This document shows, piece after piece, positions 2,430-47,192 of a DNA stretch of 48,251 nucleotides. Each line of letters opens with the position of its first letter. Position 1 is the stretch's first letter. Source of the stretch: Rhizaria sp. SCN 62-66 (lineage: Eukaryota). The stretch is from contig MEDY01000222.1 of the NCBI GenBank assembly GCA_001724265.1, forward strand, positions 1 through 48,251, given 5' to 3'. The notes under the pieces were generated by a model, which searched no databases, was not told the DNA's origin, and was given only the letters and a program-made list of their open reading frames with translations. A program made the translations under genes and the position numbers.

Positions 2430-2584
2430 ATGTCAGCAACAGCAGCCACAGCGGCTAGAGCAGCTGAAACTGCTCTCGTTGCTGCTCATGTGACCGCTTC
2501 CACAGCTGCCGCCGCTGCCCTGCCCATCTCAGCGTCGCCAGACCTCCCTGCTGTGCCAGCAGCGGGGGTGGGCGTGCCAGCTGA

Positions 2585-2615
<31 letters not shown>

Positions 2616-5524
2616 AACAGCGGCAGCAGCCGCAGCCGCAGTATCAGCCCGAGCGTCCACACCTTTAGTCCCAACGCCCCCAACGTCACCGCGAGCAGCG
2701 CCAACATCGCGGCTAATGCAAACGCTAACTCTAACGCTGCTGCTGCTACTGCTGCTGCTGGTCCTACGGTTGACGCTGCAGGTCTGCCGCCGCTGAGCCC
2801 TTTCCCTCCGGCGCGCGCGCTCGCCGCTGCCGCCGCCGCGGCCGCCGCTGCAACGGCCTCCGGCTCGGCCACCGCGTCTGCGTCTCCCAAGAGCAGCACG
2901 CGCTCGCCTGTCTTTGCGTCGGGTCTCAGCCCAAGCATGAGCCCTGCTGCCCTCGACAACCCCAACGCTCTCGCCAACAATAACAACAATAATAACGGCT
3001 TTAATCACAATAATCCACCAGGAACACCTGGCAACGCGCCCGGTACGCGCGGCAGTGCCGGTGGCGGCACCACGAGTCCGCCGGGGCTGCCCCGCGCCGC
3101 TACGGTCGGCGCCAACGCCGCCGCCGGGTCAAGTGGTCACGGCAGCGCCGCCCACACCCCGCATCACGCCCACAACCTCGCTATGGCGGGGGCGGGGAAT
3201 GGCAATAGTTCGTTCAATGAGACCGTGAGCTTCGGTAGCGCGGGTCTCGTGCCGGCGCCGCTCACGACGACTTACAGCGACCTCCACACGCATCTGCGTA
3301 CGCATGGGGATACACATGGGGGCACGCAGGGTGCTCACGGCCATAACGCGGACGCGAACGCGCACGGCGGTGTCATCACTGGCGCGATCAATGAGGAAGA
3401 CACTGAGAGTGCCGCTAATGTAAGTGCTCCCGCCACTAGTGTAAGTGCCAAGGCCCCCGTCGGCGGTCTAAGCGCCCTCATCGGCGGTCTAAGTACCCCC
3501 GCGAACGGTCTAAGTACCAGCCATGGCCCTGCTCCAATTACTGGCACCGCTGCGTTCTCAGTGTTTAGCATTGGCTCAGGCATGTCCGCAAACAACAACA
3601 ACAACAACAACAACACCGTTGCGGCTCTTGCTGCCGGTGGAGATGTTGCTGCTGTTGATCCCAACAGCGCTGTGAACGCAAATGCTGTTGCTAACGATGC
3701 TGTCGCACCGGATGCGCCTGGCAGTATGATGCCGCAGCCTCCGGTGCCGCTGCCGTTGCTGCATACTCAAACGGCGTCGCCTCACTCCGCGTCAGCCTCC
3801 CGGCCGCAGTCGCGCTCGCAGCAGCAGCTGCTGCTGGGCCAATAGGGCCAGCAGCAGCAGCTGCAGTTAACGTCTGTGGCGATGTTGACGACGCCGTCGT
3901 CGTCTGTCAACACCAACTCCAACAGCAATAACCCTCTGCTCGGTAACGATAATAACAATAACAACAACAACAACAACAATAACAATAATCCCAGCTCGAG
4001 CTCTAACTCTAGCGCAAGCATCAACATGAACCCTGCTGCTGTGCTGAGTGCGAATGTAAACGATGCGACAATGTCTGTCGCTGGCAATGGCTTGGCGACT
4101 CATGCGCCGACACCGACTGTGCTCATGTCCGCCGGCGGCGCCTCTGCTGCCGGCACAGGTACGCATGGGCATGTGCTCCCGTTCACCGCGAATGGCGACC
4201 ACAGCCACAGCTCAACGGTGCCGAGCAACGCTGTGACAACGAACATCAACAGCGCGACAGCGGCTCACGGCAACGCGAACGCTGGTTCAAGTGCGCAGTA
4301 TAACCTGACTCTGTCGCCGACCAACGGCTCGTTTGCGTACTCGGCAACGACGGGATCCGTGGTCATGGGTTCCGGCGGCGGCTATAATAACAACAACAAC
4401 AGCACCAGCGGCTCCGTCGTGTACCCAGGTGTTCCTGTCGCGATGCCGGCCGCAATCGCTCTCGCCACCGCCGCTCAGAACAACTCTGTTCATCACCAGA
4501 ACAGCAACAATCATCTGACCATGAACGCGAACGCAAATGTTGACAACGTCGAGAGCAATAACGGTGTGAACAGCGTGATCGACGGTGACGCCAACGCCAA
4601 CTCCAGCGCCAGCGCCAGCGGTGCGAGTGCGGGTGCGGCGGCTGCGGCTGATGCTGGGCCTCTAGCCGCAGCGAACGACGTTGTTCTGGACGCGCGCGCC
4701 GTCGGTTTGCCGGTGCGCACGCAAACGGCGTTCCAGCTCAACAACAACAACAACAACATCAATGTGAACACCAATACGATGAATTCGAACGCGAACGGGT
4801 ACTCGCTTAGACCGTCAGCTGCCTCTGCTGCTGCGCTGACGGCCCTACCGGCCACAGTCGCAAACAACAACGCCAACGTTAGCCATAACGCTAACCCTAG
4901 CTCTAACTGTAGCTCTAGCTCTGCGGTTGTCGCTCCTGCGTTTAGTAGCAACGGGGGGGTGAACGCTGCAAATTCGTCAGACTCTAGCGCCAACGCCAAC
5001 GCTACTGCCACTGCGAATATGAATGCGAATGCGAATGCACTGGGCGCCGGTTTCGTAGTCCCGACCTCAGTCCCCCATCAGGGCCACTTCTCCATCATGC
5101 TGCCCGCGAACAGCACTGCCGCCTCCAATCTCAACTCCGCCGGCAACGCCGGTCTCGCCGCCGGCAACGCTGCGGGGACCGGGATCGGGCCGTACACCGC
5201 GACCAGCGCCACGTTCATCCCCATCCCCGCCGCCGCCGCCGCCGCCAACCAGACCGCGGCCGCGACTGGCAACTCTAACCCCAACCCCGGCGCCGGCGCT
5301 GGCGCTGGTGCTACGGCTGTAGGTGGTGCGCCCGCCTCAGGTCCTCTGGGGAGTTCGTTGGACGCAGCCAGCACGCTGCAAGCGTTGGCGTGGCACCAGC
5401 AGCAGATGCAGTCTCAACAGCAGCTGACGGCCAGCCACATGCCGGCGTACGCGGCGGCCACGCCGTCGCCCGCCGTGCTCAACGACACGGCGAGGCTGGC
5501 GCAGGCGCGGGAACAGTTTGCGAT

Positions 5525-5562
<38 letters not shown>

Positions 5563-5824
5563 GGCAACAGACTCAGCAGACTCAGCAGACTCAGCTACAG
5601 CAACAACAACAGCCTCCGCAGCAGCAGCCGCAACAGCAGGCGTGGTCGCCCTATCCAGCCCCGTCAGTGCAGTCGACAACCAACTCGACAGCGCAGCAAC
5701 AACAGCAGCAGCAGTTTGTGTTTCCCACGCCCGTCTCTCTGCAGTCTCAGGCGCAAACGCAAACGCAGCAGGCTCAGTACTACGGTCAGAGCCAGCCTCA
5801 GACACAGTATCAGTATCAGCAGCC

Positions 5825-5858
<34 letters not shown>

Positions 5859-5948
5859 TTGTATCCAACTTTGCCCCAGACTCTGCCTCAGAATCCGGCT
5901 CAGACCCAGGCTGTCGCTATCGATGCGTTTCCTCAGTATATTCTGACT

Positions 5949-5992
<44 letters not shown>

Positions 5993-8900
5993 GCCGGTTG
6001 CAGGGCAGTATCAGCAGGTTCAATTCGCACAGCAGCCTCTGCAACAGCAGTTGCCGCAGCAGCAACAGCAGCAGTATCAGCTACCCTTGCCTCAACAGCA
6101 GCATCAGCAGCAGCAGCCGCAACTGACGCAGTCGCTGTCTCAAGCTTCTCAGCCTCAACAGCAGCAGCCTCAGTACCAGTACCAACCGCAGTACCAGCAG
6201 CAGCCGCAGCTGCCGACTCAGTATCAGCCCGCTTTGATGCCTCAACAGCAGCAGCAGCAGCATCAGCAGCCGTATCAACAGCCGACTATGCAGCAGCCGC
6301 AACAGCTTCAGCCGCCGCCGCAGCAACAGCAGCTCTCACTCGCGCACTCCGTTTCCAGCAACAGCTTGTACACCGCGAACAACTCCAATCTGCTGAGCAC
6401 CTCGCCGTACACTGCCCCTTCTGCTGTCGCCGCGGTCTCCGCGAGTGACAGCGTGAGCCTCAGCAACAGCGTCGCCCTGAGCAACGCGGCCGCCGCGAGG
6501 GGCAGTGTGGCCGCTCCTGTTGGGCTCACCGAGGCGCAGATGGCACAGTTCCAGTATCAGTACCAGAACCAGCTCCAGCAACACCAACAGCAACAGCAGC
6601 AGCAGCAGCAGATGCAGTTGATGCAGCTCCAGCAGCAACAACAGCGGCAGCAACAACAACAGCAGCAGCAGCAGATTCAACTGCAGCAGTATCAACAGCA
6701 GCAGCAACAGCAGCAGCTGCAGCAACAGATCAGCAACACGTCCGGTGTCGCCACTATTGCGTCTGCCCCTCACTTCACTGCCCAATCGCCCGCCACCGCG
6801 CCGGTCGCTGCGCCGATCAACACGTCCCCGTACTTCGCCGCGGCCCCGGCTCCGGGCGCGCTTCCGGCCACTGCCTCCATGCCCGTGCCTGGGCCGATGC
6901 CAGTGCCGGGCGCAGGCGCGGGCGCAGCCTCGGTTGACCCCAACGCTACGGGGGGGGCGGGCATGATGGCGGTCGGCGCTCTGCCCACGACCGCGCACGG
7001 GAACGCTGCGACTGCGGCCGCTGTGCCTGTCGCGGTCGCTGTGGCTGCGAGCGCGCCGATCGCAAACGCCAACCAGCAGCAGTATCAGCAGCAACAGCAA
7101 CAGCGGGTTGCAGTGATGCCTACGGTCACAACAACGACACCCACACATCAGCAGCAGCAGCAGCAGCAGCAGGCGCGCCCCAACGCGATCAGCGGCAACC
7201 CGAGCAACAGCGGAACGCCCCTCAGCACGACGGCGAGCTCCAGCTCTGCGACCGCCTCTGCAGCGGCGACAAGCGCCGCGAGCGCGCGCCCCTCTGCCTC
7301 CGCGGTCAGCAACGTCCCCACAGCCGCCAACAATGCGGGCAACAGCGTTGTGACCGTCGGCCCTGCCATCCCCCTGCAGTTCTCCGCGACGCCGTTCGAT
7401 CCCGCCGCCGCGTACTCGATCGTCGACCTGTTGACCGGCCGCGTCTTCGCCCTGTCCCCCGCTGCCCGCGCCGCGCCCGCGGCCCCGTTGTACTCGGCCG
7501 CGCGCGCCGCCGCCGTGGCCGCGAGCCCGCGGCTCGGCTCGGGCTTCGCCCGGGACACGCGCGGCATCCTGGCCGGGATTCTGAGCTTCCTCACCCTAAA
7601 GGAGTTGCTATCTCTGTCGCAGGTGTCGCGGCACATGCACGCCGCCGTGCACACGACGCTGCGCTACAGCGACACGCTCGATCTGGCGCAGTTCTGGTCC
7701 GCGCTGGGCGTCAAGCGCTCGCGCCGCGTCGTTGCGCTCGCCAGCGAGATGCGCTCGGTCAAAACGGTGTCGCTCGCTTTCTGCAACCTCGTCACGGACC
7801 GCTTCGTCGCGGACGTGCTGAAAGCGCTGTACCCGACGCCGCCGCAGCGCCAGCAGCTGCGGTCGTTCAACGCCTATTACTGTTACAAGCTCACGGACGC
7901 GTTTGTGGCGATGTTCGTGCGGCACTTCACTAACGTGACGCACGTCGACCTCGGCCGCTGCCTTTCGCTCACTGACGTCTCGTTTTCGCTGCTGTCCCAG
8001 CTGCCCAAGCTCAAGTCCCTCTCGTTCGCCGGCTCGCCGCACCTCTCGCTATGCATGGCGGACCTGCTGACGTCAGCAAGCGACCCCGTCAAGAACACGC
8101 CGATGCCTTTCCCGGCCCTGCGGGACCTCAACGTCGAAGGCTGTTTGCAGCGCATTTGCCGCCGCAGTGACTTGGAGACGATCCGCAGGCTGCGGCCGCG
8201 GCTGCGCATCCAGTTCGTGCCCGTCGACGCCAACTCTTCCTCTTCAAGCGGCGGCGGCGCGAGCGGCGCGGGCTCGGGCGCCAACAGCAACTCCGCCGGC
8301 AGCGACGCCTCTGGCGGCGGGGGCGGCGGCTCGGGCGCGGGCGCGGGCTCGGGCTCCGCCGGCACCGTCAATGGGAACACGGTGGGCGACGACGAGGACG
8401 AGGCCGAGGCCCGTGAGGAGGAAGAGTTGGCTGAGGCACGGGAGTCGTTCGTCACGTCGACGCTCTTCAACGCGGCCAAGAGCGCGAACGAGGAGTATAA
8501 CAACGCCGTCAACAACGCGGCCGACAATGCCGCCGCTCGTGCTAAGGCCGAGATTGTGACTGAGACCGCGGCGGTCGCTGAAGCTGGTCCTGCTCCAGCT
8601 CCGGCTCCTGCTGTTGAGGCTGAGGCTGAGGCTGAGGCTGAGGCTCAAACGGAGGCTGCTGAGACTGAGACTGCTGATGCTGCTGCTAAGCCTGATGTTG
8701 CGGTTGCTGAGGCTGAGGCTGAGGCCGATAAGAAGACTGGCAAGACCAACGCTGACCCCGCGGAGGCTGCTGCTGAGGCTCCTGCTCCCGAGGCTGAGAC
8801 TGAGACTGCTGATGCCAAAGCTGCGGACACCGAGGCGGGCACTGGCGATCCAACTGTTGATGCAAAGGCTGACTCTGACGGCGCCAAGGCTAAGGCTCAG

Positions 8901-9527
8901 ACTGGGGCTGCTGAATCAACGCCTGAGAGTGAGACTGAGGCGGCGGACAAGCCTGAGACCGAGACTAAGGCTGAGGCAGCTAAGGCCGACGAGCAGACTG
9001 AGGCTGAGGCCGACGCTGCCGCAGACTCGAAGACCGAGACTGAAGCGAAGCTTGAGTCGGAGTCTGAGACTGAGACTGCAGCCGAGCCCAAGACTGAGGC
9101 TGAGGCCGACGCGAAAGCTGAGTCTGATTCGAAGGCGGATAAGGCTGAGGCCGAGGTTGAGGCTGAGGCTGAGGTTGAGGCTGAGGCTGACTCCAAGGCT
9201 GACTCTAAGGCTGATTCTAAGGCTGAAGGCGCCGACGCTGAGGATGAGAAGACGAAGACAAAGGCTGAGGCTGATACAGAAGCAGCAAAGACTGAGTCCG
9301 AGCCAGACACTGCAGCTGCCGTCACTCAGGCTGATTCTGAGAAGCCTGAGGCTGAGGCTGAGGCTGAGTCTGCTGAGGATGCTGATGATGGCGTTACGAC
9401 AGCCAAGTCTGAGGTCAACGCAGAGCCAGAAAATACTGCGGAGACTGCGACAGAGTCTGCTACACAGAAGATGGCGAACAAGAAGGCAAACAAGTCTACT
9501 GCCGCGACTCCCAGAAAGAAGGCGTAA
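2430..9527 (+). CDS. Giant F-box/leucine-rich-repeat (FBXL-type) protein, ~2365 aa if the in-frame TAG at 3843-3845 is read as sense; N/Q/A-rich N-terminal region and acidic Glu/Ala-rich tail
   Basis: ORFs 2430..3845 and 3876..9527 are in the same frame, separated only by one TAG (GGC CAA TAG GGC CAG CAG), with the same low-complexity composition on both sides. There is an F-box-like motif (ILAGILSFLTLKELLSLSQVSRHMHAAV, ~7566-7650) followed by cysteine-containing LRRs (VSLAFCNLVTD, FNAYYCYKLTD, VDLGRCLSLTD, LNVEGC). The gene ends in TAA at 9525-9527 and has no AT-rich intron. Confidence 0.75.
3843..3845 (+). other. In-frame TAG codon inside the F-box/LRR gene (candidate sense codon)
   Basis: Context translates SQQQLLLGQ*GQQQQLQL. 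The frame is open for 471 codons before it and ~1890 codons after it. Confidence 0.7.
5524..7170 (+). repeat. Dense CAG/CAA trinucleotide tracts encoding polyglutamine and Q/P/Y-rich low-complexity sequence
   Basis: Many (CAG)n runs are visible, e.g. from ~5526, ~5826, ~5949, ~6580-6730 and ~7149. Confidence 0.95.
8616..9370 (+). repeat. Degenerate GAGGCT/GAGACT hexamer repeats encoding an acidic (EA/ET)n tail
   Basis: Runs such as gaggctgaggctgaggct at 8616-8646, 9145-9190 and 9348-9366, plus a near-exact ADSK x3 repeat at ~9186-9221. Confidence 0.85.
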
Positions 9528-10143
9528 TATGCCTGTCTGCAAGCACACAACGCAGACAAGCAAGAACTCTAGACACTGTACAACCACCTTTTTAAAAAGA
9601 AAAGAAGAAAGATATGTCTCACTAGAGCGGCTCTGGTGAGACTATTGTGATCACACCCGTATAGCTTAGATCCCGTACTACTCATTTATCCTGTTTACTT
9701 AAATACATCCAACTGTTTTATTCCTCTATTTCTTCATTATAAATTATGCAATCGTGTTTGTGGTGGAAACTGGGCTTTGCTCACGGTCAGTACCAGCCGA
9801 CAGCTCACGGTCACTATTTTAGGCAGCGACAGTTATTCCCAAGTTCGAACCGCTGTCGACGTTTTGTTTTGAAGGTTAACCGCAGTGATCGTCTCCGTAA
9901 GGCATTTAAATGTGGAGAAATGTTTCCGACGGCTTGTTTCATTCTATAATTTGTTGCTGCTGCTATTCTCGCGCGTGCGCGTTGTACATACCGCGCTTTT
10001 TCGTTCTGCCCCGAGGGCCTCAGCTTGAACGGTCTTGTTGGAGGCCCTTCCAGCGTCCTCTTCTTTTGCCTCCAGCGCCCTCCCATGACCGTAGCTCACG
10101 CTTTCTTCTTTTGCTTCGTATAATTCGCACGTGCAGGGCTACG

Positions 10144-13100
10144 ATGTGGTGCTCGAGGTACTTCCTATCTCTCGTGCTACTCGCATCACTCGTCCTCTCT
10201 GTTTTGCCGTTTTCGGCAGCCTCAGAGCTGGGTGCCTGCTCGACGTGCCCTTCCGGCCACTACTGCGAGAAGGCCGTCGATGCCCCTCACCTTGCAACTC
10301 CGACTCCTTGCCCCGCCGGCACCTACTCCGCGTCCACCGGCCGCTCCTCTGCGCAAACCTGCCGCGCCTGTCCCGCAGGCTACCTCTGCGCCACCGCTGG
10401 CATCACCCACTTCGACTCTGTCCGCTGCCCCGCCGGTGCCTTTTGCCCCGAGGGCACCGCGGCCGCCGTCCCCTGCCCCGTCGGCACGTTCCAGCCCTCC
10501 ACTGGCGCGTCCTCGCTCGATGAGTGCCTTCCCTGCCCCGCCGGCGCCGTTTGCGCCGCCCCGGCAACTCTGGTGCCCGCCCCCTGCCCCCTCGGCAAGC
10601 TCTGCCCCGCCAAGACCTGGGAGCCCCTCCAGTGTCCCCCCGGCCACTACTGCCCGCCTGCGTCCACCGCCAGCGCCAGCGCCGCCCTCCACGGCGCCTC
10701 GGCTGCATCCGTGAGCGCCCGCGGCGGCGGCTTCGAGGCAATCCCCTGCCCCGCCGGCTTCTACTGCGGCCCCATCGACGCCTCGGCCGCCGTGCCCTGC
10801 CCCGTCGGCACCTTTTGCCCCGCGCGCGCCGCCGCCCCCGAGCCCTGCCCTGCGGGCCACTCTGCGCGAGTCGGCCCGACGGTGTTCGACGGCGCGCGTG
10901 ACTCGCTCGACGCGGCCTGCGCCGCGTGTGCGCCGGGCACCTGGCAGCGCCGCGGCGACACCACCGGCCAGTGCGAGCCCTGCCCCGCCGGCCACACCTG
11001 CCCCGGGGGCGGCCTCGTCGTTGCCCCCGCTGCAGCCGCCCCGCGCGCCGTCCCCGTGAGCACCTACGGTCACGATGAGGCCGAGATGGACACGATGTGC
11101 CCGGCCGGCCACTACTGCCCCGCGGGCTCCGCCGTGCCGGTCGCCTGCCCCGCCGGGTCGTTCAACCCGCTGCGCGGCGCCGGCGCGCCCGCCGACTGCC
11201 TGCCGTGCCCCGCAGACACGTTCTCCGCCGCCGCGGCCGCGACCAGCTGCCGCGCGTGCCCGGCCCACGCGACTGCCGCCGCGGGCTCTGCCGCCTGCGC
11301 GTGCGCCGCCGCGGGCCGCGTCTTCTTCCCCGCGGACCGCTCGTGCCGCTGCAAGCCCGGGTTTGAGCTCAGCCCGCTGGCCGCGCTCGCGGAGGCCAAG
11401 GCCAAGGCCGCCGCCGCGGCTGCCGCCGCGGTCGCTGCCCGCACCCCGCTGACGGCCCGGCTCTCACGCGCCTTCACCAAGCTCACCAGCGGCGTCAACC
11501 GGGCCGCCGCCGACGCTGACTTTGAGGACGGCTCTGAGGCCGACGCTGACCGTGAGGACGACTCTGAGGCCGCTGCCGCGCAGGCCGCCGCCGAAGCCGC
11601 CGACGCCGTGTCGCTCTCTGACATCGAGCTCTCTGCCTACGACTGCCGCGAGACTGTGTACGAGCGGTGCGCCGCGCACGAGGCCCGCGCCGCCAACGGC
11701 AAGTGCGTCGACCGCAGCGGCGCGCACTGTGCGCAGGTCTGCGGCACTGCTGCTTCGGCTAGCACCATCGCTGATGCTGACGCGCCCCTCGAGTCCGCCG
11801 ACACCGTCCTCCAGTTCATCGACCACAGCAACGGCAATAGCCGCGGCAACATGAATGTGAACGGTACGTTCGCGAAGCGTGCGACCTCTGCCCGCGCGCA
11901 TGGCCACTACTTCGACGCCAAGCTCGGCATCTGCCAGTGCCGCGACGCCGCGACGCTGATCGAGAACGTCTGCGACGCCGACTGCCGCGCCCGCGCCCCC
12001 GTGCTCGCTCTCGCGCCTTCCCTCATCAATGCCAACAGCAACGACAACGGCAACGGTAAGACTGCGCTTGACGTCGTCGTCACTCTGCCCAACGGCGCCA
12101 ACGCGCAGCAGTTCGACCAGTACCGTATCTCCGCCGCCCAGGCCGGCTTCACCGCGTCCTCGCTCCCCACCGTCTGCAACAGCAACAGTGACATTGGCAG
12201 TGACAGCGACAGCATGCTGTGCCGCGCCCACCTGGCCTCGGTCAGCCCGCGCGGCGTCGGCGCGCTCTTCTCGCTGCCCGCCACAATCGCCACCGCGCTC
12301 AGCGCCGCCTACCCGGACTCGACCGCGCTCCAGACGTACCTCGCGCGCGCCGGCACTGCCGCCGGCACGCGTGACGGCACGCGTACTGGTGCGCGCGCGC
12401 TGTTTGCGACGGGCAGCAGCGACATCGTCGTCTACCCGGTCGTCTTCTGCCTCAAGCCCAGCGAGAGCCTCGTATTCGAATTCTCCCCGGCCAGCAACTC
12501 GTACCCGACGTACGACGCCGCGAACCTGCTCAACACTAACTCAGCGTTCGACTACTCGCTTTTCACCAACCTGCCCGCGCAGTTCCCCACCCCGGCCTCG
12601 GTCACCACGGCCATCTTCGGCTTCACGTTCACCGACCCCGGCACATACGTCTTCGTCGACTCGGCCGACGCGGACAAGATGTCGATTGTGCGCGTGCTTG
12701 ATGCCGCGCAGACCTGCCCCGCCGGGTCCACGGGCCGCGTCAGCTCGATCTCCAGCGCCACGCTCGCCGAGCTCGGCGTCATCGAGTCCAGCTCCGTGCT
12801 CACCAAGCCCAACTGGGACCTCATCGGCATTCTCCTTGCCATCTTTGTTGTGCTTATTCTCATTATCCTCTTCTCGCTGTGCTGCCTGCAGCACGTCGGC
12901 TGGGGCACTGCGCCCGCCAAGGATCCGCTTTACCGTCGCGAGGCCCAGGTACGTGCAACAGATAGATCTCGCTTATACCACATGTTTATGTGCTTAGTTT
13001 ATATTTAACTTGTATTCTTAGTTATTTATTAAAATTGCCTGAATTCATGTTAAAATACTCACAGATGCCGTTGCTATTTCCTCTTGTTGTTTGTTCCTCT

Positions 13101-33500: not shown

Positions 33501-34909
33501 GCTGTGGCTGGGGCCGCGCGCGCGGGAGGAGCGCGACATCGACATTGCGGCCTTGCGGGTGATGGGGTGCATCAGCGTCGACTCGGACTCCTGGTAGTGA
33601 GAGTCGTCGCCTGTGTTGTTGCTCGCGGCCAGGCTGCCGGTGGCGATGATGGGGGACAGCTGCGAGTGCAGGGCCGTGCTCGCGGCGGTGGAGATGCTGC
33701 TTGCGCTGTTGTTGTTGCTGTTATTGTTGCCACTAGCAGTCGAGGCGAGGCGCGGGGACGCGATGAGCACGTGCTTGCCGGAGGTGCCAGAGGTGCCCGG
33801 GGGGGTGCCGGCGCCGCTGCCGCTGCTGACAGTGCCGTTGGGGTTCGTGATGAGGTTCGGGGAGCCGGAGCGCAGTGAACCCACCACGAAACCGCTGCCA
33901 CTGCCGCTGCCGTTGCCGTTGTTGTTGTTGTTGTTGTTGCTGCTGCTGGGCACAGTGGGGGAAAACCCGTCGTTGCCCGTAGACTCGAGGTGGAACTTGA
34001 GGGGCGTGGCGAAGCCGAGACGCTGCTGGTTGCTGCCCAAACCGCCGGCGCCGCTGCTGTTGTTGTTGTTATGAGGCAACAGAGCAGAGGCGGCGGTGGC
34101 AACGGGCGCGAGAATGCCGCTGCCGTTGCCGCTGCCGCCGCCGCCGCGGCCGCCGTGGCCGTGGTGGTGGTGATGATGATGGTGCGAGGGCGGGGGAGGC
34201 GCGGGGGCGCCACGAATGACGTGTGAGTCGTCGACATGGCTCCCTGCACCGCCCTTATTGCTGTTGTTGCCGGCGGAAGAAGGCGCGAGTTGCGCCGCCA
34301 GACCCGCGGTCGCGCGGCCGTCACCGTCGCCGTCGTAGAAGTGAGGGTCCGTCGAGTCCTCGTAGTCGTCAAAGTCGCCCTCCAGCTCGCCGGCGAGGAA
34401 CTCGGCGTCCAGCGCCGTCAGCGCCGCGGGCGGGACGATGATCGAACTAGACCATGCGTCGTGCACGCCTGGAGAGCAAACATTGAAATGTAGAAGAAAA
34501 ATAAAAACAAATCAGGTTGGGAAATGTAAGTATAGTCACAATAATTCAAAATCGCGTCGAAAATCGTTCCGAGATAAACGCGGTTTACTGCGTTCGGCGA
34601 GGAGAGGATATCGTTGGACGTACTGCTGCTGCCGCCGTTGTTGTGACTCGAGGTCGGGAAGGTGCCCTCGGGAAAGGTCTCCGTGCCGGACATAACGACG
34701 TTGAGGTGCACCGAGGATGGGTACGCGCTGTGGAGCGGCGCGGTCGAGCCGAGCGAATCGCTGTGCGCGAGCGACGTCCCCGACAGCGAGTCGGTGCTGG
34801 TGGAGCCGGCGAGAGCGCCAGCAACGCCCGCGCCGCCGCCGTCGGCAGAGGCATTGCGGGGGGAGCCGCCGGTGGAGCTGTTGGAGCCGCCCAAGCGTGC
34901 AGAGTCCAT
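30508..34909 (-). CDS. APC-superfamily amino-acid permease, ~1351 aa, with a long disordered N-terminus and a C-terminal soluble domain
   Basis: Exons: 34909-34624, 34468-32087, 31895-30508; both introns are GTACGT...CAG in phase 1; total 4056 nt. About 12 hydrophobic segments with motifs ATAICGNDATGSLFY, LPLNGGAYNVLLNT, GFESSANYVEEQ and LAMDRCLPQ, then FFTKNGDLSVLNKAVLYIRDNE. It ends in TGA. Confidence 0.88.
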
Positions 34910-35935: not shown

Positions 35936-37595
35936 TTAGCTGCGCTTGAGCGTGACACTCGCGACCATCTGGACCAAATACCTTGCCACCGCCGGACCCA
36001 ACGTCTCCCTCCGCCTCCCACCAATCGCCCCGCCATCACCACCGCTCCCAGCCGCTCCCGCCGCTGCCGCTGCCGCCGCGGCTGCTGATGCTGCGTTGTG
36101 ATTGAGTCCCTGGTTGGTGCAGATCTCCCCCACGCGCGCCACAACGTCAACCCACACGTCGGCCGCGCCCAGCGTGGCCAGCCCGGCCGCCTGCGCCTGC
36201 GCCACCGCTCCGCCCACACTCACCCGCCGCAGTGGCAGCCGCGACGCCGAAGGAGACGGCGACACGGCCGACTGACCGCCGCTGCCACAGCTGTTCGCGC
36301 CAGCTGCCACCGGCGCCACGGTGAGCGGGGCGAGCGAGAGCAGCAGCGGCGGCGGCAGGAGCCCGAAGTCTTTCTCGAGCTCTGCGGCGGCCGCGAGCCG
36401 TTTGGCGCGGGCAGCGGCCTCTCGAGCACCCACAGCCGGCGCGGCACCTGTGGATGCGGCGGACGTCTTCGCTGCTACCTCTGCGGATAGGAACGAGAGA
36501 GGAATGATGGCGCCGTGGGCCAAATATCGAGCAGCTTGCTGCTGCTGCTGCTGTTGCTGCTGCTGTTCAGGGACGGTATTCGCAGCATTCGCAGTATTCG
36601 CAGCGTTGTGGCCGGCGGTGTGGTTGGGCAGCACGAGCGCGAGCCCGCGGAGCTGGAGCTCGTCCCGGAGCACCTTGACGACCGTGGTCCGCAGCGCCTG
36701 CACCGTGGGCAGCACGGCGAAGACCCCCGTGGCGCGCCCCTGCGACACGAGCGGGATCTGGATGAGCGCGCGGAACCAGGCCTACGAGGCCGCGGCCAGG
36801 CGCTGGCCGCGCACCACAGCCGCCGCGCGCAGCGCCACGGGCGCCGAGGTCGTCGTCAGCGCCAGGAACGGGTCCGCGGACCGGGCAAACTCTCGCGACT
36901 GAGACCGCGCCACGGCAGCCAGCGCGGCCGAGACCGACAAAACGCCGTCGATCGGGCGCAGACGCAGGCCGCGGCGCAGCGCCACCGCCGAGAGCGTCAG
37001 CGACGCGGCCGCGGTCGACGCGAACGGGGACTAGTCGGGTGAAAACAATAGCCGCAAACGCAAGAGAGATGTGAGTTGTGTTAAAGTGAAACATTGCGAG
37101 AGATAAACAACGCGTATGAAGATAAATCAAACATGTAGTCAGACGGGAAATGCACTCCTTAAAATAATATGCCACAAGTTCCTAATATTTAGCCATTTCT
37201 GTTTTATATCTAGATTTGACGTACTTTGACGACGGCCCCGCCCGACGCGGCCGCGCAGTGGACGGCGACGGCCTCGCCCAGCTCGGCCCGCGCGCGCTGC
37301 TGCAGCGCCACGGCGGCGGCGCGCGTGACCGTGGCGTGCATGTCGAGCACGAGCACGGTCACGGCGTGCCGCGGCAGTGCGGCCTTAAGCAGGAAGAGAT
37401 AGAGCTCGAGCGCGGAGACGTGGCCCGGCGGAGGCAGTGCGCCGCCCGCCGCGCCCGCCGCGCCGGCTTTGGGCGGAGCGGCCCGGGGGGGCGGCGCGGC
37501 GGCGGCGGAGGGCTGGGGTAGCGAGCGGTCGAGGCGTGCGCGGCAAAACGGGCACACATCACCGCGATTGACACTGCCGCCGTTACTGCTACTGT

Positions 37596-37626
<31 letters not shown>

Positions 37627-39946
37627 AATGTTAATGCTTGCGTTGGTGTTGCACCAGCACGTGCGCGCAACGGCGGCGCCCGCGCGCGCGCCCGCTGCAG
37701 TGATCACGGGTATCACGGCCGCCACAGCGGCGCAGACCGAGGGCGCGTCCAACACGACCGTGACCGCGGGGGCGGACATCGCAGCGTATGGCGATAAGAG
37801 CGGATACAGCGATCGGGGCAGCGGCTGCTGGGGCGACTGGGGCGACGGGGAACTGGGAGACTGCGCGGGGTCAGGTGGCTGATGTGGCTGGAGACTGATA
37901 CGCTCGTTATTGTTGCTGCTGCTGAGGTTGCTGGAGACTGTGCTGCCTTGATATGAGCTGGCGAGCAGTGCTGCGACCGCCGCAGCCCGCAAAGCACGGT
38001 CGCTCTCAGTCGCGCCACTGTTCCCGCGCTTGCTAGCATGAGTCGGAATCAAGGGAATGATCGTCGGGACAACTGATGGCAACGCACTAGAAAAAGAATT
38101 GCAGTTGGCGCTCGAGCTAGAACGAGAACTGCTTGCAGATGAGCCGACGGCGCTGGCGCTGTTGTTCGCGTTGATAGCCGCATTGGTCGCGAGCGCGAGC
38201 GCTTGCTTCGACGCGAGCGCCTGTGGCAGCGTTGTGGGCGTAGGCAACAGAAACCGCCACGGCGCGAGGCCACCGTCCCAACCGCCGCCGCCGGCTGCCG
38301 CTGTTACTGGACTTGCAGCTGCTGCTGCTGCTGAAGCCGATGCGTTACTGTTGCCGGGGTAATCACCGGCGACAGCGCTTTTGATATTGCTGTCGACGGC
38401 GATATGAGTCGGCAGGAGCGGCGGCAAGGGCGTCGCAGCGGGTAAGTGCGCGAGCTGTGTAAGCACCCAGTTGGTGCAGTCGCCGAGACTCAACGGCGCG
38501 GCCGGGATGACCGGGAAGGCCGCGGTGGGCGACGGCGACGCGGCGACAACGGCGGCGGCTACTGAGGCCAAGGCGGCGGCCTTAGACTTGGTGTCAGAGT
38601 CGGGGTCAGCGGCAGGAGTACCCGCAGTCTCCGCCGGCGTCGTGGCGCCTGCAGTGCTGCTCCCTGCCGTTGCAAGGATTGCACTGACGTTGATGTTGCC
38701 AACGTTGACGCTATTGGCACTCAGCGCGTTCAAGTGCGCGTGGGACAGCCCCTTAGCCGCCGTATTCGTGCTGCTTGTCTTAGGACTTGCACTGCTGCTG
38801 CAGCTGTTGTTCTCATAATTGTCGTCGTCATCGTCATCATCGTCCTTAAGGCCGGAAGGTTGCGGCAGGGGAATGAAGCAGTGCACACTGGCGAGATTAA
38901 GCGGCGGAAGCGACATCTCCAAGGGCCGCTGCCAGGGAGGCACTAAGTAGCCCTGCTCGCAGTCTAAGTAGCCCTGCCGCTCCAAGTGCGCCTTGTCTAA
39001 GAGCGCTGATTCAGTCGAGGCTGAACCGCGCTTAGATCCACTGGCATTCGCGCTGGAAGCACTTGCCCTGTCTGCATCGTTGTTGTTGCATTGTAATGGG
39101 ACAGGGTGGCCTGTCACCGCCCGGGTCAGCACCGAGGCACGCGCAGTACTTAGATACTCGCCGGCGCTTCCGCTCACGCGCTGCGCATCTGCGTCGGCTT
39201 CGTTACTGCGATACCCACAGTCGACCCCGTGGCCGCGATCGTGACTGTGCCGAGCGTCGGCAGTGCTGTCACTGCTAGCCTTAAGAGCTGTTGCTTTGAG
39301 TCCAGTGACTGAGCTATAGCTCCCAGCTCCTCCGCTGCAGCCACCGTAAGCATCCGCAACAACTGCAGCAGCCCCTACGCTCATGCTGACGCTACCGTGA
39401 TCGGCTGCACTTGCACCCGCACCCGCACTCGCGCGAGAGCTGCTTTTCGCAGCGTGCGTGTTCGAGACGGACGCGGGGACAGAGACAGAGAGGCCTGCGC
39501 CGGGGCAAACATACTGCCGCAGCTGCGGGGGGAAGTCGGCGGCCGTGACCAGCGCCAGCTCCTCCGCCGGCGACACGAAGCACAGCGTGTCCCACCACTG
39601 CTGCGCGCCCACACCTCTTAGATCGGCGTAAGGACCCGCGCCGCCGCCTCTGCCAGTGCTACCACGGCTGTTGAGGAGAAACTGCTGCTTGCCGTTCAGC
39701 TGGTACGCTCGGTACGAAGTGTAGGCGTTGAAGTTGTAAATTGTCGCTGTGTCGGCGCCGGCGTAGGCCCCGTCAGCGCGGAAGTTAAGCCGCATGCGTT
39801 CACGGTCGTTCTTCGGGACCGCAGTCCAAGGGGACTGTGCCCCACTTACATTCAAGCCGCCGCTTCCAGAGGTACTTACATCACGAGAGCCACTCACACG
39901 ATAACAAACGCGGTTGTCGCTGCTGTCACTCACTAAGCTGAAACTA

Positions 39947-39978
<32 letters not shown>

Positions 39979-41128
39979 CATGCTGTGGACGCTGCCGCTG
40001 CCATTGCCGGGGCTACGAATGACCGTGAGCGCGGTGCCGACCGTGGTCGCAGCGGTCGGCGGCGGGAAGCGGGGCTCGCCCAGGCGCCGGAGCAGGGACG
40101 GCAAGCCTGCCCCGGCCGCGGTGGCCGCGACCGCCACGGCCGAGACGACGCCGCCCTTGTACTCGTACTGACTCGCCCGCTGCGCACCGACGACAGCGAC
40201 GCTCGAGCCGCTGCTGCTGCCGGCCTCGACGGGAGACTTGCTACTCAGGCTGGGACTCGCGCCGCTGTTCGGCTTGCTAGTGTTATCATAGTCGTAGAGG
40301 CCGTTGCTCTCCTCCTCCTCCTCGTCTTCTGCGTCAAACTCGCCGTAGCCGTCGTCATCGTCGTCGCCGAAGCTCCTCTGGCCGCGCGCACTCACCTCGG
40401 ACAGCGTGGTGTCGGCCTCGTAGCTCCAGTACGCGCTAGCGCCCGCGACTCGCGCGAACGCCACCGCGCCCGCGACGGGCAGCCGCATCAGCGCAAAGCG
40501 CATAGGGTGGTCACGCCGCTGCGTCAAGAGCTGCCCCAGCAGCGCCACGACGACGGCCGCGGGGACGCGGACGTCGATGAGGGCGACGGTGTCGCGCTCA
40601 CTGCCGAGCGCGGGCAGCGCACCCGGCCCCCGACTGTAAAGACGCGAGGCGTGCACAAACGGCGGGGCTGCCAGCGGCGATGACAGCAGCGCGGCGCTGG
40701 CGCTGGTGCTGAGGCGCGGAGAACCAAAATCTAAGCCGCCAACGGGCGGGGAAGTTAAGCCGCTCGTGGGCGCATCGCTGGGGGAGGATAAGCTCGAGCT
40801 CTGCGCTGGTAGTGATTGCTTCATGCTTTGCTCGTGCTGTTGCGGTTGCTGTTGCTGCTTTTGTTGCTGCTGTTGCTGATGTTGTTGCTGTGGGCGTAAA
40901 AAGGCGCCAATGATGTCGTTTCTTGCCAGTTTTCTCGCAGTGACCGCACTGCTCACAGCCGCTGCGCTGCTGTTGCTACTAATATTCATTGCGCTACTGC
41001 TACTGCTGCTGTTGCTGCTGCTGTTGCTGCTGCGGCTAACAGTCAAGTCGGCGGCGGTGCTCTTAGTCGTCTCGTTGCCACCGACAGCACTCGCACTCGT
41101 CTTTGCAATAGAAGAAAGGAAACCAGTG

Positions 41129-41164
<36 letters not shown>

Positions 41165-41768
41165 ATTGTCACAGCAGTCGCGGTGCTCTTGCTGCTGCCT
41201 TTGTTGAGCTTCCTTTGCAGCCTCTCCGTCAGCGTCAGCGCCAAGTCGTCGTCGTTGTCGCTGCTACTGCTGCTTACGCCACCGAAGCGCTGCCACTGCT
41301 TCAGTTGGTGGTCGTGTTGCATGAGCTGCGACAGCGACGACGACTCCTGCTCCGGTTGCTGTTGCTGCTGTTGCGAGGAGGAAGAAGATGTGGCGGGGCG
41401 GGGCCGCTTGTACGTCTGAGCAACGACACCGTCGTCGTCGCCATCGTCAAGCATAACGTCGCCATCGACGTCATCGCCGTTGGACGGCTTACTTGCGCTT
41501 GAGCGCGAAGCAGATGCAGAAGCGGAGGCGGAGGCAGGGGCAGCAGCGACTTTTTCTGCAACAGCGGGCTTCAGAGGCTGTTCACAAACTACATGAAAGT
41601 GAAATTCAGTGAGAAAAAAATGTGAGTTAAAACACTTTGAGGTTTGGAGAGATATGGCAAAGCTTTTGTTGATGCGAGGAACTTACTTTCGCACTCAGCG
41701 AGAAGGGCCGAGTTGAGGTAAGTGCAGCTGGGGCAGGAAATGCCACGCCCGCCATCAAGATGAGCCAT
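35936..41768 (-). CDS. EME1/MMS4-like (XPF/ERCC4-family non-catalytic subunit) protein with an N-terminal RanBP2-type zinc finger, ~1846 aa; contains an in-frame TAG at 36782-36784
   Basis: Exons: 41768-41687, 41588-37225, 37030-35936 (introns GTAAGT..TAG and GTACGT..TAG; total 5541 nt). The spliced N-terminus reads CPSCTYLNSALLAECEICEQPL (RanBP2/NZF pattern). The C-terminal segments AWFRALIQIPLVSQGRATGVFAVLPTVQAL and RRRETLGPAVARYL resemble, from memory, the EME1 (HhH)2 motifs VWRRQIQQLNRVS...A.AV...YPS...L and RRIGPELSRRIY. It ends in TAA. Confidence 0.65.
36782..36784 (-). other. In-frame TAG codon immediately before the HhH-like domain of the EME1-like gene (candidate sense codon)
   Basis: Minus strand reads GCC TCG TAG GCC TGG TTC CGC. 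ORFs 36782..36985 and 35936..36748 share the same frame. Confidence 0.72.
41129..41164 (-). repeat. (GAT)n microsatellite encoding a poly-Asp run
   Basis: (TCA)12 on the plus strand; translates as DDDDDDDDDDDD in the EME1-like frame. Confidence 0.9.
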
Positions 41769-42902: not shown

Positions 42903-44932
42903 TCACTGCAGCGGCGTGCCCGCAAGCGGCTCGACCGCGGCGACCACGGAGCGGTTGGCGAAGCGGCGGCCGTGCAGCACCGCCACCGCCTGCTGAGCCT
43001 CCGCCGTCGTGCCGTACGCCACAAACACCTCCAGCTCCCCGTTATCGTTGTTGCGGACGAGAGTGACGGCGCGCACGGTGCCCCAGCGGCGGCACTCGTC
43101 GGCGACCTCGTCGGTCAGCTCGGCCACAGTCGCCTCGGCCAGGTCCGCCTCGGTGAACATGTTGCGCAGCCGCACCGTGCTCACGGTCGCCTGGGACTGC
43201 TGCTGCTGCGGGGCAGTGTTGTCGGTAGCGGAAGACGCGGCGGAGACAGGCGCGGGCATGGACGCGTACGCAGGGGCAGGGACAGCAGGGGCGAAAGCGT
43301 TCGCATTGCTCATGTTGTTCATGTTGCTGGGGGCAGGGTTGTTGGTGGGCTTGACGACGATGTTGCGGGAGCCCAGCTTCTGGCCGTTGAGCTTTTCCAT
43401 GGCCATCTTGGCGCTCGCCTCGGTTGCGAACTCGAGGAACCCGTGGCCCTTGTGGCGGCCAGTCGAGTGGTCCTGTCAAAGCAAAGAAGAAGAAAAAGAA
43501 ATGGCACAGTGGCATGAGACGATGAAGTCATAAAAGAATTAAAACAGAAAATATCATTAGGTAATAGCTAGATGCACCTTAGTGCACAGTTTGATTTGAT
43601 GTTTCGACTTAAACTAACTCAAAAACATGCTAACTGTTAAGTCACCACACATACCTGGATGAGGTTACACGAGCGGACCTCGCCGAACGCGCTGAAAATG
43701 GCCCGGAGGTGGTCTTCGTTGAACTCGGGCGCAATCTGGGCCAGGAACACCCTGCATTCGGTGTTGCTGCCGCTGCTGCTCACGCCCGCACCCGCGCCGC
43801 CGCCGCCGTCAGCGCCCGCCGCGCCCTGTGCCGCGCCGGCCGAGTGGCCGTGCGACGAGGCGGGTCCGTGGGGCACCTGCGTCGGCACGACGGGCACCAG
43901 AGGGGTGACTGTGAGCAGCGCGGGCGCCTGCCGCGCCGCCGCCTGCGGGTTGGCCAGCCGCGGCAGATTGGCGCGCATGGCGCGGCCGGCGACGAGGTAC
44001 CCGTTGAGGGCCGTCATCGCGCGGACCGCGTCGGCCTGGTGCGCGAACTCAACGAAGCAGAAGCCCTTGGTGTGGCGCTTGTCCGTGTCGCGCGGCATGT
44101 CGACCTTGGTGACGGGCCCCACGACGGCGGACACGATCGCCAGCACGTCGCCCTCGGTGACGGTGTAGTCGAGCGAGCTCAGGTGCACGCGACGCGCAGG
44201 GTCGTTGGGGATGCCAGTGATGGCGATGGGCGCGCCTGCGGTTGCGTATTCGGTCACCAGCGCGCCCACCGGGGGCGCCGCGGCGGGCGCGGACAGCGCG
44301 GACAGCGGGTCGGCGGCAGCGCCGCCGCCACTGCCGCCCAGCAGAGGGTTGCCCCCGCCGGGGACTGTGTTGGTGAAGAGCGAGGCAGCTGTGATCTGGT
44401 CCAGCGCGGCCGCACCGGCGCCCGCCGCAGCGCCACCCGGCGCGGCCGCAGAGTATAGCGAGCCCTCGAGCGCGGCGCGGCTCGCGCGTTCGCTGGCGCG
44501 GGAGATAAGCGCGCGCGCGTGCGTCAGCGTGACGATCTGCTGCGCCAGGAATGCGTTGCCCGCGTCGAAGCCGTCGGTGGCGACGCGGCGGCGCTTCGGC
44601 AGCGGCACAGCGGCCGCGGCCACGGCGGCCGCGTGCTCAGGGGACGTCAGCGCTGAGTCGGGCACCGCCGCGGCGGCGGTGGGGCCGGAGCTGGAGCTTG
44701 TGTTCGAGTTGAAGATGGCGTTGCTGAGGGCGGAGAGGCCCGTTTTGGGGTCGACTTTGAGCGCGGAGTAAACGTGACGGTTCACGCCCTTGGGGAGGTC
44801 AGCAAACACAGAGGGCATGGCCGCGATCGCGAGCGCAGTCTCTTCGGGGTTGCTCACAGGCATAGGCACAGGCGCAGGTGCAGGCGCTGCAGCAGTGTTG
44901 TTGTCGTGGTTGACTGACTCCATGCTGGACAT
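42903..44932 (-). CDS. PUF60: PUF60-like poly(U)-binding splicing factor (RRM-RRM-UHM), ~615 aa
   Basis: Exons 44932-43655 and 43472-42903 (phase-0 GTATGT..CAG intron 43473-43654). RRM1: RVHLSSLDY...KGFCFVEF. RRM2: RVFLAQIAPEF...FSAFGEVRSCNLIQ|DHSTGRHKGHGFLEF. UHM: VRLRNMF...EVADECRRWG...LHGRRFANRSVVA. RBM39 is the less likely alternative. It ends in TGA. Confidence 0.8.
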
Positions 44933-45663
44933 CGGGGGCTGTGTAAGAAGAATAAGTGAGGTAGGGAGTCGCCTGGAACGGGGGAAAGGAGCGGGGAAAC
45001 AACAAAGAGAAGCTGTGGCGAGTCGCTCGATGTCTGCGTGCTGGCTGGCAGGAGAGAGAGCTTAGTTTGGTTAGAGGTCTGTGAAGAGGGAGTAGAGAGG
45101 AAGATCAAAGGATACGCGGGGGGTGGTGAGCAGCTGTAATGGGGCTTGAAAATGGATCATTTAGATATGCAACTCTGGTGCATATAGAAAAGGCTGTAGA
45201 TGTCGTAACGGCCAAAGAGGCGAGTTGCAATCGATACAATCCGAACGCTGGTCGTGTGTGTTGTGACCAACCGCTCTCTCGAGGTTCGCAAAAAAGCCGG
45301 CCGTCGCGCGACTACCACGAGCGAGAGGAGAAATGCTTACTGAAACAGCACCACTTCAAGAACGCGGCTGCTGCGTCGTTAAATATCCGGCAGTGGATTT
45401 TTGGCGACTTCGATGAGGTTTTATGTATGGAAATACGCTAATATTTTTTGCTAGCAGTTGCCCAGTCGATGTCTTGCGTGCCCTGTCTCATCCGAAACTG
45501 TTCCACCTCTCGCCTCACCACACTCCACTTCTCACCACACACTACTCCGTTTCCCCGCGCCCACTTGTTCTCCCCTTTCTTTGCGCTTGCAACCACAGCG
45601 TTCCTCCGCGCCCCCACCACCGCTCGTTGCCCGTTTGTGCGTCTCTCGCAAGCAACCACTCCC
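44933..45663. promoter_or_regulatory. Putative bidirectional promoter region between the divergent PUF60-like and MOB genes
   Basis: The head-to-head start codons at 44932 (-) and 45664 (+) are only ~730 nt apart. Inferred from gene layout only. Confidence 0.4.
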
Positions 45664-47192
45664 ATGGGCCAAGGCAAATCGAAGGAGGCAGCCCACGACG
45701 GCGCCTCTGCTGACAGCAAAAAGGACAAGAAGGACAAGAAAGACAAGAAGGATAAGAAGGACAAGAAGGACGCTGGTGGCAACAGCGCCGCTGCCGCCAC
45801 CCCGTCTCCTCAGCGCGCCCAGCCCCTCCACACAAACTCTCACTCACCTGTTCTTGCTCCTGCCTCTGCCGCTCCTGCCGCTGCTGCTGGTGGCATCACT
45901 CGCACGGCAACGGTCCAGTCCACCCCCGCTGCCCCCGCCGCGCTGCCCTCGTCCTCCTCCACCGTTCCTGTTGTGTCCACCAACAACGCCAACGCTGCCG
46001 GCAAGCCCTCTTCCGCTGCCGCTGGCGTTGCTGCTGCCGCTGCCGGCGACGGAGAGGGTGACGGCGAGCGTCTGGCCGCCGTTGACCTCACCGACGTCCC
46101 TGAGGGTACTCAGCAGGCCGCCTACGACCACTGGTCTGCGCTTGCGCCCCCCGAGCCTACCCCTGCCTCTGCCCCCCCTGCCCCTGCGCCGGCCACGGCC
46201 ACGGCTCCGGCTCCGGCTACCGCTGCTAAGGACTCCAACGTCAAGGATAACAATAACGACGCCGCTGTTGCTGCGGGCAACAACAACAACAACACTGCTG
46301 GCTCGGGACTTAAGCGCAACGCCTCGCTCAAGAACCCCGTGCCCCCCTCCCCCGCCAACGCCAATGCCAAAGACGCTGGCAATAGCAACGGCGCTGTGCG
46401 CGCGGGCACGCTGCGGCTGCAGAAGACGATGCGCGACACGATGACGGCGACCCCCTGCGCCGGCGACCTGCGGCAGCTCGTGCGATTACCCGCCACAGCC
46501 GACTGCGACGAGTGGGTCGCGCTCAACACGATCCACTTCTACCGCGCGTCGCGGATGATCTTCGACTCGTACTCGTGTCTTTGCAACCACCTCACGTGCC
46601 CCTCGATGACCGCCGGACAGGTATGTCTTGGAAAACCCTCGAAAACCTTGAACTGCACCACTAGCAGATCTTCAAAGCGATGTATCTCGAGTCTTGATGT
46701 TATTTCAATATCTCCATGTTTATGCTCGTTATTAACTAGTATCATTTGTTTTATCAAATAACTCACGCATATACCCCTCGGACTGTCTTCTTTCATTCTT
46801 AGGTTGAGTACCTTTGGCGCGACGGCAAGCAGTACCCCGCCCCCACGCGGGTCCCCGCCTGCACCTACATCGCGCTCGCGCTGGCGGACGCGTTGGCGAC
46901 CATCGACGACCAGGCCATCTTCCCGATCCACGAGGACCAACAGTTCACGCCGGCGTTCCTGGTCGCCGTCAAGGAGATGCACAAACGCATGTTCCGCATG
47001 TTCGCGCACCTGTATTACGCCCACTACGAGCAAATCAAGAAGATGGGCTCGCACCGTCACCTCAACTCGAGCTTCAAGCACTTCATCCTGTTCGCGGTCG
47101 AGTTCCAGCTGCTGGACGCGGCCACGATGGCGCCGCTGCAGCAGTTCATCGACCACATCACGTCCACCAACAGCACGGTCAAGGCAACTTGA
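45664..47192 (+). CDS. MOB1/phocein-family kinase activator with a ~250-aa N-terminal extension, ~448 aa
   Basis: Exons 45664-46620 and 46803-47192 (intron GTATGT..TAG, phase 0). MOB motifs: LRQLVRLP..D.DEWVALNT, C...TCPSMTAG|VEYLW.D, DDQAIFP, KRMFRMFAHLYYAH, HLNSSFKHFILFAVEFQLL. It ends in TGA. Confidence 0.92.
45718..45771 (+). repeat. Six tandem 9-nt units encoding (KKD)6
   Basis: aaaaaggac aagaaggac aagaaagac aagaaggat aagaaggac aagaaggac. Confidence 0.9.

Follow-up and report, generated by a model that had tools for sequence, protein, structure and literature searches.

In-frame UAG codons in a GC-rich protist contig: a candidate for early reassignment of UAG alone

Few nuclear genetic codes give UAG and UAA different meanings, and in Iotanema, the rhizarian exLh and the phyllopharyngean ciliates the change is mature, with the reassigned codon already common, according to the excerpts of the published accounts that are cited here and below. 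In the fornicate Iotanema spirale, UAG encodes glutamine (Gln), and UAA and UGA are stops (PMC5304391). In exLh, UAG encodes leucine (Leu), with 71 UAGs in eight conserved proteins and Leu at 82 of 86 hyperconserved sites (PMC5304391). Phyllopharyngean ciliates read UAG as Leu or Gln, 78-91% of their genes containing it and 6.5-32% of Leu or Gln codons being UAG (PMC11687900), and a further ciliate has been described in which UAA and UAG encode different amino acids (PMC10553269). We examined contig MEDY01000222.1, 48,251 bases of metagenome-derived eukaryotic DNA (the window), in which three of eight genes carry an in-frame TAG and no gene ends in one.

An initial annotation of the window had proposed that UAG is read as sense and that UAA and UGA remain stops. 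Translation of UAG as an amino acid is, in our assessment, the best single explanation and a moderately probable one: two of the three TAGs (sites 1 and 3 below) lie in frame-specific coding sequence, and TAG terminates none of the eight genes. A change of the code is not established by these observations. We also advance, tentatively and as something short of probable, the more specific proposal of a new non-ciliate, GC-rich lineage of wastewater-reactor protists at the very start of UAG reassignment, in which UAG has been abandoned as a terminator and is decoded, possibly as glutamate (Glu) and not Gln, only in weakly expressed, weakly constrained genes.

In-frame TAGs and terminators in eight gene models

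Eight spliced gene models were rebuilt, comprising 11,549 codons up to the first TAA or TGA and 18 introns; introns were defined from the alternation of AT-poor and AT-rich sequence together with splice motifs. Every exon set joins without a frameshift, as had been reported initially, and the only in-frame stops are three TAGs, with no TAA or TGA. The coordinates and frames of these TAGs, one in each of three genes, were verified. The sites and the genes that carry them are as follows (GC3, G+C content at third codon positions).

Site 1, 3843..3845, + strand: in-frame TAG, codon 472 of 2,365 in gene A; CAA TAG GGC in a Q/L-rich tract
Site 2, 29205..29207, - strand: in-frame TAG, codon 86 of 316 in gene D; ACT TAG AGC; the weakest site
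Site 3, 36782..36784, - strand: in-frame TAG, codon 1493 of 1,774 in gene F; TCG TAG GCC, two residues before a conserved helix-hairpin-helix (HhH) block
Gene A, 2430..9527, + strand: putative F-box protein, single exon, 2,365 codons, low-complexity; terminator TAA; GC3 0.72
Gene D, 28512..29462, - strand: orphan open reading frame (ORF), 316 codons if the start is the ATG at 29462; terminator TGA; GC3 0.64
Gene F, 35936..41454, - strand: putative EME1-like protein, 1,774 codons as modelled; terminator TAA; GC3 0.74
Gene F intron, 37031..37224, - strand: 194 nucleotides (nt), GC 0.37, GTACGT...CTAG

TAA terminates three genes (A, F and C, a CPSF2-like gene) and TGA the other five, in agreement with the earlier tally. 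TAG thus makes up 0.026% of codons (3/11,549, about 1 in 4,000), so that the rarity already remarked upon is confirmed and is extreme. Outside the models, a scan of stop-to-stop ORFs of at least 60 codons revealed no other coding-like ORF with TAG at its end.

The 18 introns (between 12949 and 46802) are 142-194 nt long with GC of 0.27-0.40. Their donors are GTACG (13 of 18), GTATG (3), GTACT (1) and GTTCG (1), and the YAG acceptors are preceded in many introns by a CTCAC-like motif that may be the branch site. This uniform signature could help in placing the lineage. The flanks of the three TAGs have GC of 0.48-0.79, set against the 0.27-0.40 of introns, and no TAG lies in intron-like DNA.

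Site 1 joins two abutting ORFs of the same frame (2337..3845 and 3846..9527). Over the stretch checked, the TAG frame contains no stop in the 471 codons upstream and none in 485 codons downstream; the other five frames hold 8-24 stops upstream and 8-28 downstream. The TAG frame also scores best of the three sense-strand frames on both sides, and 1,893 codons are open after the TAG. GC is 0.68 and 0.48 in the two 150-nt flanks. Site 1 is solid as an in-frame codon inside continuous coding sequence.

Two other roles for site 1 were considered and rejected. As a gene boundary it would place the next ATG only 36 nt on, compared with spacers of 616-1,448 nt (GC 0.42-0.54) between modelled genes elsewhere (n=7); as an intron end it would define a GTATG..TAG intron of 122 nt with GC 0.68 that breaks the sole open frame. 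The F-box label of gene A is weak, being drawn from sub-threshold Pfam matches (near residue 1744 of protein P0001; E 3.7e-4, 20.7 bits against a cut-off of 24.3), and no homologue of the F-box region was found among searched proteins of 1,317-4,193 amino acids (aa).

Site 3 is the strongest of the three and is likewise solid as a codon inside continuous coding sequence. In frame ahead of ORF 35936..36781 lie another 82 codons, in an exon that begins at 37030 in phase with the upstream exon, and 281 codons are open after the TAG. Of the three sense-strand frames, the one with the TAG scores highest for codon usage on either side of it (0.3-0.5 bits per codon); log-odds are highest in this frame from 37030 to about 36580 and peak at 0.51-0.52 bits per codon across the TAG itself. 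GC3 is 0.91 upstream and 0.78 downstream.

A full-library HMMER search with the site 3 exon (TAG translated as Q) returned three proteins. P0125, identical on 5 contigs, comes from the organism itself and was called as a fragment that starts after the TAG; P0126 belongs to a relative (E 1e-43, 56% identity), and P0127 is more distant (E 9e-5). The alignment with P0126 crosses the site unbroken, covering 80 residues before and 63 after it, and resumes at the C-terminus; it places RGRRLGAAS-E-AWFRMLIQIPQVSQARA opposite RGQRLAAAS-TAG-AWFRALIQIPLVSQGRA of gene F. The residue aligned to the TAG is Glu in P0126; it is arginine (Arg), directly before a conserved AW, in P0127 and in P0128, a single continuous protein of 583 aa from the same cluster as P0127. 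Both relatives conserve the stretch upstream of site 3, which must therefore be exon rather than part of a longer intron.

Two candidates near site 3 were set aside. If a 443-nt intron ended at the TAG, the 82 codons conserved in P0126 and P0128 would be lost, and a second TAG in the raw frame 35936..37126 is the 3' end of the gene F intron (37224..37031) and not an in-frame codon. Gene F probably has an extra 5' exon outside the 1,774-codon model, running from an ATG near 41755 (41700-41755) to a GTAAGT intron; the exon (within 41455-41760, - strand) has a few dozen codons and no stop.

The EME1-like label of gene F is plausible, judging from sub-threshold matches in the relative's protein. 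Residues 107-141 of P0126 match HHH_5 (E 1e-4, 23.1 bits against a cut-off of 27) and EME1-MUS81_C (E 0.015, 15.9 bits against a cut-off of 27.4), and this HhH-like block starts two residues after the position aligned to site 3. A profile of the three proteins searched against PDB gave the HhH domain of FAAP24 (E 0.73), and the window protein P0124 had no Pfam match. Gene F may have a divergent ERCC4-type domain upstream; when an ERCC4-type nuclease domain was looked for, no Pfam family reached E<=0.01 in the 1,490-aa upstream exon and no ERCC4-type family reached E<=1 in P0128. An AlphaFold2 model of the C-terminus of gene F was poor (mean predicted local distance difference test score 47.4, predicted template modelling score 0.31).

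Site 2 lies where ORF 29205..29699 abuts ORF 28512..29204. The next in-frame ATG is 129 codons on, and over this open stretch the best-scoring frame is the TAG frame; upstream of the site, the other frames hold just 2 stops each. An intron ending at the TAG (GTAACC..TTAG, 132 nt, GC 0.66, no CTCAC-like motif) was rejected, its donor falling outside the four types found in the 18 introns. Alternatively, the TAG could lie in a 264-nt intron with a GTGAGT donor just before the ATG at 29462. No homologue of gene D residues 80-395 was found among searched proteins of 217-692 aa.

Weighing of the competing explanations

Sequencing runs with near-identical DNA were compared with the window at sites 2 and 3, with contig depth of about 4-8 in the runs. 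Of the three TAGs, that of site 2 is the one verified in independent DNA: a 3,489-nt contig from an independent 2025 run (X4) retains it while differing at 3 other positions, and the contigs of runs X2 and X3 are identical to the window. At site 3, no differing letter was listed in 4 runs; there was depth in its bin, but no contig piece was seen across the site. The polyA run X6 yielded short contigs, with no piece over sites 2 or 3. Runs X4 and X6 together differ from the window at 22 positions, 16 of them in modelled coding sequence, where all but one (K>R) are synonymous changes at third positions, an independent validation of the frames. As 15 of these 16 are synonymous, the gene frames are under purifying selection; in gene E alone the count is 14 of 15.

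The most serious competitor to recoding, although an unlikely one, is that the standard code is in force. On this view two very long genes under weak constraint have recently acquired nonsense alleles, at sites 1 and 3, that are fixed or common in a clonal population of the bioreactor; the TAG at site 2 closes an upstream ORF (uORF) or lies in the 5' untranslated region (5'UTR) of a gene with a later start; and the lack of TAG terminators is due to chance. Several observations weigh against recoding; the bias of nonsense changes, the low GC3 and the length of the genes, the state of site 2, the tolerance of EME1/Mms4 loss and the low UAG usage speak for this alternative. The sample is tiny: three codons, two of them solid. 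At this codon usage, TAG is the outcome of 74% of single-step nonsense changes, so that plain mutation would yield three TAGs and no TAA or TGA about 0.4 of the time, and the fact that all three codons are TAG hardly discriminates. The earlier caution that CAG>TAG is an easy nonsense change was sound, but it was too narrow, since the 74% covers all single-step nonsense changes.

The three TAG-bearing genes also have the lowest GC3 (0.72, 0.64 and 0.74, versus 0.80-0.90 in the other five), which is where a nonsense allele would be best tolerated, and two of them, at 1,774-2,365 codons, are large mutational targets. Loss of EME1/Mms4 is tolerated in several organisms. At site 2, the 85 codons from the ATG at 29462 to the TAG have a GC3 of 0.52 and no frame with coding signal, so that the TAG may be the end of a uORF or lie in the 5'UTR; the earlier description of all three TAGs as lying within continuous coding sequence holds for sites 1 and 3 and is doubtful here. 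TAG ends 20-33% of genes in other GC-rich genomes, and at that usage its absence from eight terminators has a probability of about 0.04-0.17 and is no more than mildly unlikely.

Further points on the same side concern decoding. Within the window there are no tRNAs of any kind and no Rfam matches. The base following each TAG is a purine (G, A, G), and a purine at +4 favours termination over leakiness. Only one site has an aligned residue, and the relatives disagree there (Glu versus Arg). Finally, UAG usage (3 of 8 genes, 0.026% of codons) is far below that of the UAG-reassigned lineages in the excerpted accounts (PMC11687900; PMC5304391).

Ordinary nonsense alleles and young pseudogenes resemble the window in combining a single TAG with intact long genes and weak codon bias, and TAG is the stop expected in a GC3-rich genome. 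What sets the window apart is that two to three of its eight genes are affected, while it has neither a frameshift, nor an in-frame TAA or TGA, nor a TAG terminator. Two independent and very recent hits in eight genes would be needed with no other lesion; the codons after sites 1 and 3 are still open with their codon bias intact, and the frames of the region are under purifying selection. A strain with differences elsewhere has the same TAG at site 2, and the ORF downstream of site 3 is identical on 5 contigs. A start of gene D after its TAG would leave the 129 open codons in the best-scoring frame unexplained.

An improbable alternative is that UAG is still a stop and that the affected messages are rescued, either by gene-specific programmed readthrough with a near-cognate tRNA or by RNA editing of UAG to a UGG-like codon or CAG. 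The frames beyond the TAGs are intact and codon-biased, so the downstream sequence must be translated somehow, but no motif is common to CAA TAG GGC, ACT TAG AGC and TCG TAG GCC, and the purine at +4 in all three is a strong termination context. Moreover, three of eight genes is far above any known frequency of programmed readthrough, and rescue leaves the absence of TAG terminators unexplained.

That the TAGs are assembly or base-calling errors is hardly credible even for a metagenome contig of low depth, given the identical site 2 in the X2, X3 and 2025 contigs, the presence on 5 contigs of P0125, whose start immediately follows the site 3 TAG, the lack of any differing letter at 36782-36784 (although with no contig piece across it), and the implausibility of three stop-creating substitutions with no indel error in 11,549 codons.

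We return to translation of UAG, which we infer from the position of the TAGs and from their absence at gene ends. It would involve a tRNA-CUA, one anticodon change away from the Gln, Glu or Leu tRNA that gave rise to it, and an eRF1 that no longer recognises UAG efficiently; eRF1 is not among the genes of the window. UAG would have been dropped as a terminator and would only be starting to serve as a sense codon, in weakly codon-biased genes.

The residue is most plausibly Glu or Gln. Glu is a candidate because the closest relative has it at site 3 and GAG>TAG is one step, and Gln because CAG>TAG is one step and the context of site 1 is Q-rich. The Q-rich tract had been cited in the initial annotation in naming Gln as most likely; site 1 is indeed Q-rich, but it is equally L-rich, and Gln has no specific support. 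Nor did a consistent residue emerge opposite the TAGs: one of the three sites could be aligned, and it gave Glu in the closest relative and Arg in the distant ones.

Source organism and remaining features

A look-up of sequencing runs showed that several studies, made in different years, have recovered near-identical DNA from metagenomes of bioreactors and wastewater; among the runs are a sample that may be the source, the independent 2025 study and a polyA metatranscriptome. The window has about 60% G+C, with AT-richer spacers, and eukaryotic genes with spliceosomal introns. The organism is a GC-rich, intron-bearing protist of bioreactors and wastewater, perhaps a non-ciliate one. The remaining genes of the window are listed below.

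Gene B, 10144..20521, + strand: 10 exons, 2,994 codons; no TAG; terminator TGA; GC3 0.90
Gene C, 21716..27449, - strand: CPSF2/Cft2-like, 5 exons, 1,686 codons; no TAG; terminator TAA
Gene E, 30508..34909, - strand: amino-acid permease, 3 exons, 1,351 codons; no TAG; terminator TGA
Gene G, 42903..44932, - strand: RRM protein, 2 exons, 615 codons; terminator TGA
Gene H, 45664..47192, + strand: 2 exons, 448 codons; terminator TGA; C-terminus possibly Mob1-like

Gene C has a CPSF2-type N-terminal metallo-beta-lactamase domain (Lactamase_B_6, E 1.7e-47), and its listed homologues are CPSF2 proteins. For this domain, one metagenome relative (P0004) shares 74% identity and all other matches are at or below 49%, the named ones coming from animals, plants and amoebozoans. 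A scan of metagenome contigs with the CPSF2 N-terminus gave 5 loci at just 36-50% identity, from unrelated eukaryotes, and included neither the source contig nor that of the 74% relative. Genome contigs gave no match to the protein query or to a 32-nt stretch beside site 3, and a search of the ESM Atlas with CPSF2 exon 1 returned generic metallo-beta-lactamase clusters with no taxonomic lead. Exact look-up of TAG-bounded ORF pieces in a protein collection found none of the five.

One contig of polyA run X6 (26554-26918, - strand) runs from CPSF2 exon 1 into 105 nt of the first intron (26554-26658). As it spans intron sequence, the library holds DNA or unspliced RNA of the organism. The joints listed for this run were all low-complexity noise with sides of 20-25 nt.

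Gene B encodes a signal peptide with ephrin-receptor-like cysteine repeats, a transmembrane helix, and about 2,000 residues made up of coiled coil and a conserved C-terminal region. These three parts are fused in one protein, linked by the first intron (12949-13102). A further intron of gene B (15922-16080, + strand), at 159 nt, is divisible by three and free of in-frame stops, and the raw ORF 15736..16767 reads straight through it. An open frame alone is therefore no proof of an exon here.

Run X4 also carries contig pieces of a more divergent relative in the permease exon of gene E (32118-33168, - strand). All 12 positions at which it differs (at 32118-32124 and 32979-33033) are synonymous and lie multiples of three apart, indicating that a sister strain or species co-occurs.

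Homopolymer tracts built from a single codon are unusually common in the proteins (2430-9527, 30508-34909, 37225-41454), poly-Asn being written as AAC and poly-Gln as CAG. Runs of Ala, Ser, Asp and His occur too, even within conserved proteins such as the permease and CPSF2. The first 2.3 kb or so of the window (1-2300, GC 0.44-0.46) contains no coding-like ORF in any frame and is longer than the 0.6-1.4-kb spacers elsewhere.

Comparison with known variant codes

A literature search for an activated-sludge protist with an altered stop codon found none by title or start of abstract, and a general search returned known cases only. As far as the excerpted accounts go, Iotanema resembles the window in having UAG alone in frame and UAA and UGA as the only terminators, and the tRNA-CUA and altered eRF1 predicted there are those proposed here (PMC5304391). 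It differs in having 96 in-frame UAGs in conserved blocks, with Gln at 22 of 28 hyperconserved sites, as opposed to three UAGs and no consistent residue here (PMC5304391). The organism of the window, unlike Iotanema, is GC-rich and has introns of 142-194 nt.

In exLh, UAG is likewise uncoupled from UAA and is rarest in highly expressed genes, which may be set beside its occurrence here in the least codon-biased genes only (PMC5304391). The residue differs, being Leu in exLh, whereas the relatives have Glu or Arg at the one site that can be aligned (PMC5304391). Phyllopharyngean ciliates share with the reading proposed for the window a reassignment of UAG alone, UAA being kept as a stop in the excerpted account (PMC11687900). 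Compared with the frequencies given for them there, UAG would make up just 0.5% of Gln codons here (3 versus 599 CAG+CAA), and TGA, in 5 of 8 genes, is the commonest terminator here, in contrast to those ciliates.

NCBI translation table 15 (Blepharisma nuclei; TAG=Q) reads all eight genes open to TAA or TGA. The fit is a formal description, applicable if the residue is Gln, and is no evidence that the organism uses that code. The ciliate in which UAA and UAG are split reportedly reads UAA as lysine and UAG as Glu. UAG=Glu, which matches the residue of the closest relative at site 3, would have a precedent there, but UAA is also sense in that ciliate, whereas here UAA ends three of the eight genes.

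Gene callers that assume the standard code already split the TAG-bearing genes, as the fragment P0125 illustrates, and if UAG is sense the proteins of this lineage would be systematically truncated in metagenome catalogues. The organism would then represent a natural intermediate stage of codon reassignment, with sense UAG at about 0.03% of codons, and would open to direct study the early steps of the process, including which tRNA comes first, how far eRF1 has changed and how ambiguous decoding is. If real, this incipient reassignment would be a new case among the nuclear codes in which UAG alone is sense, in a lineage unlike those described.

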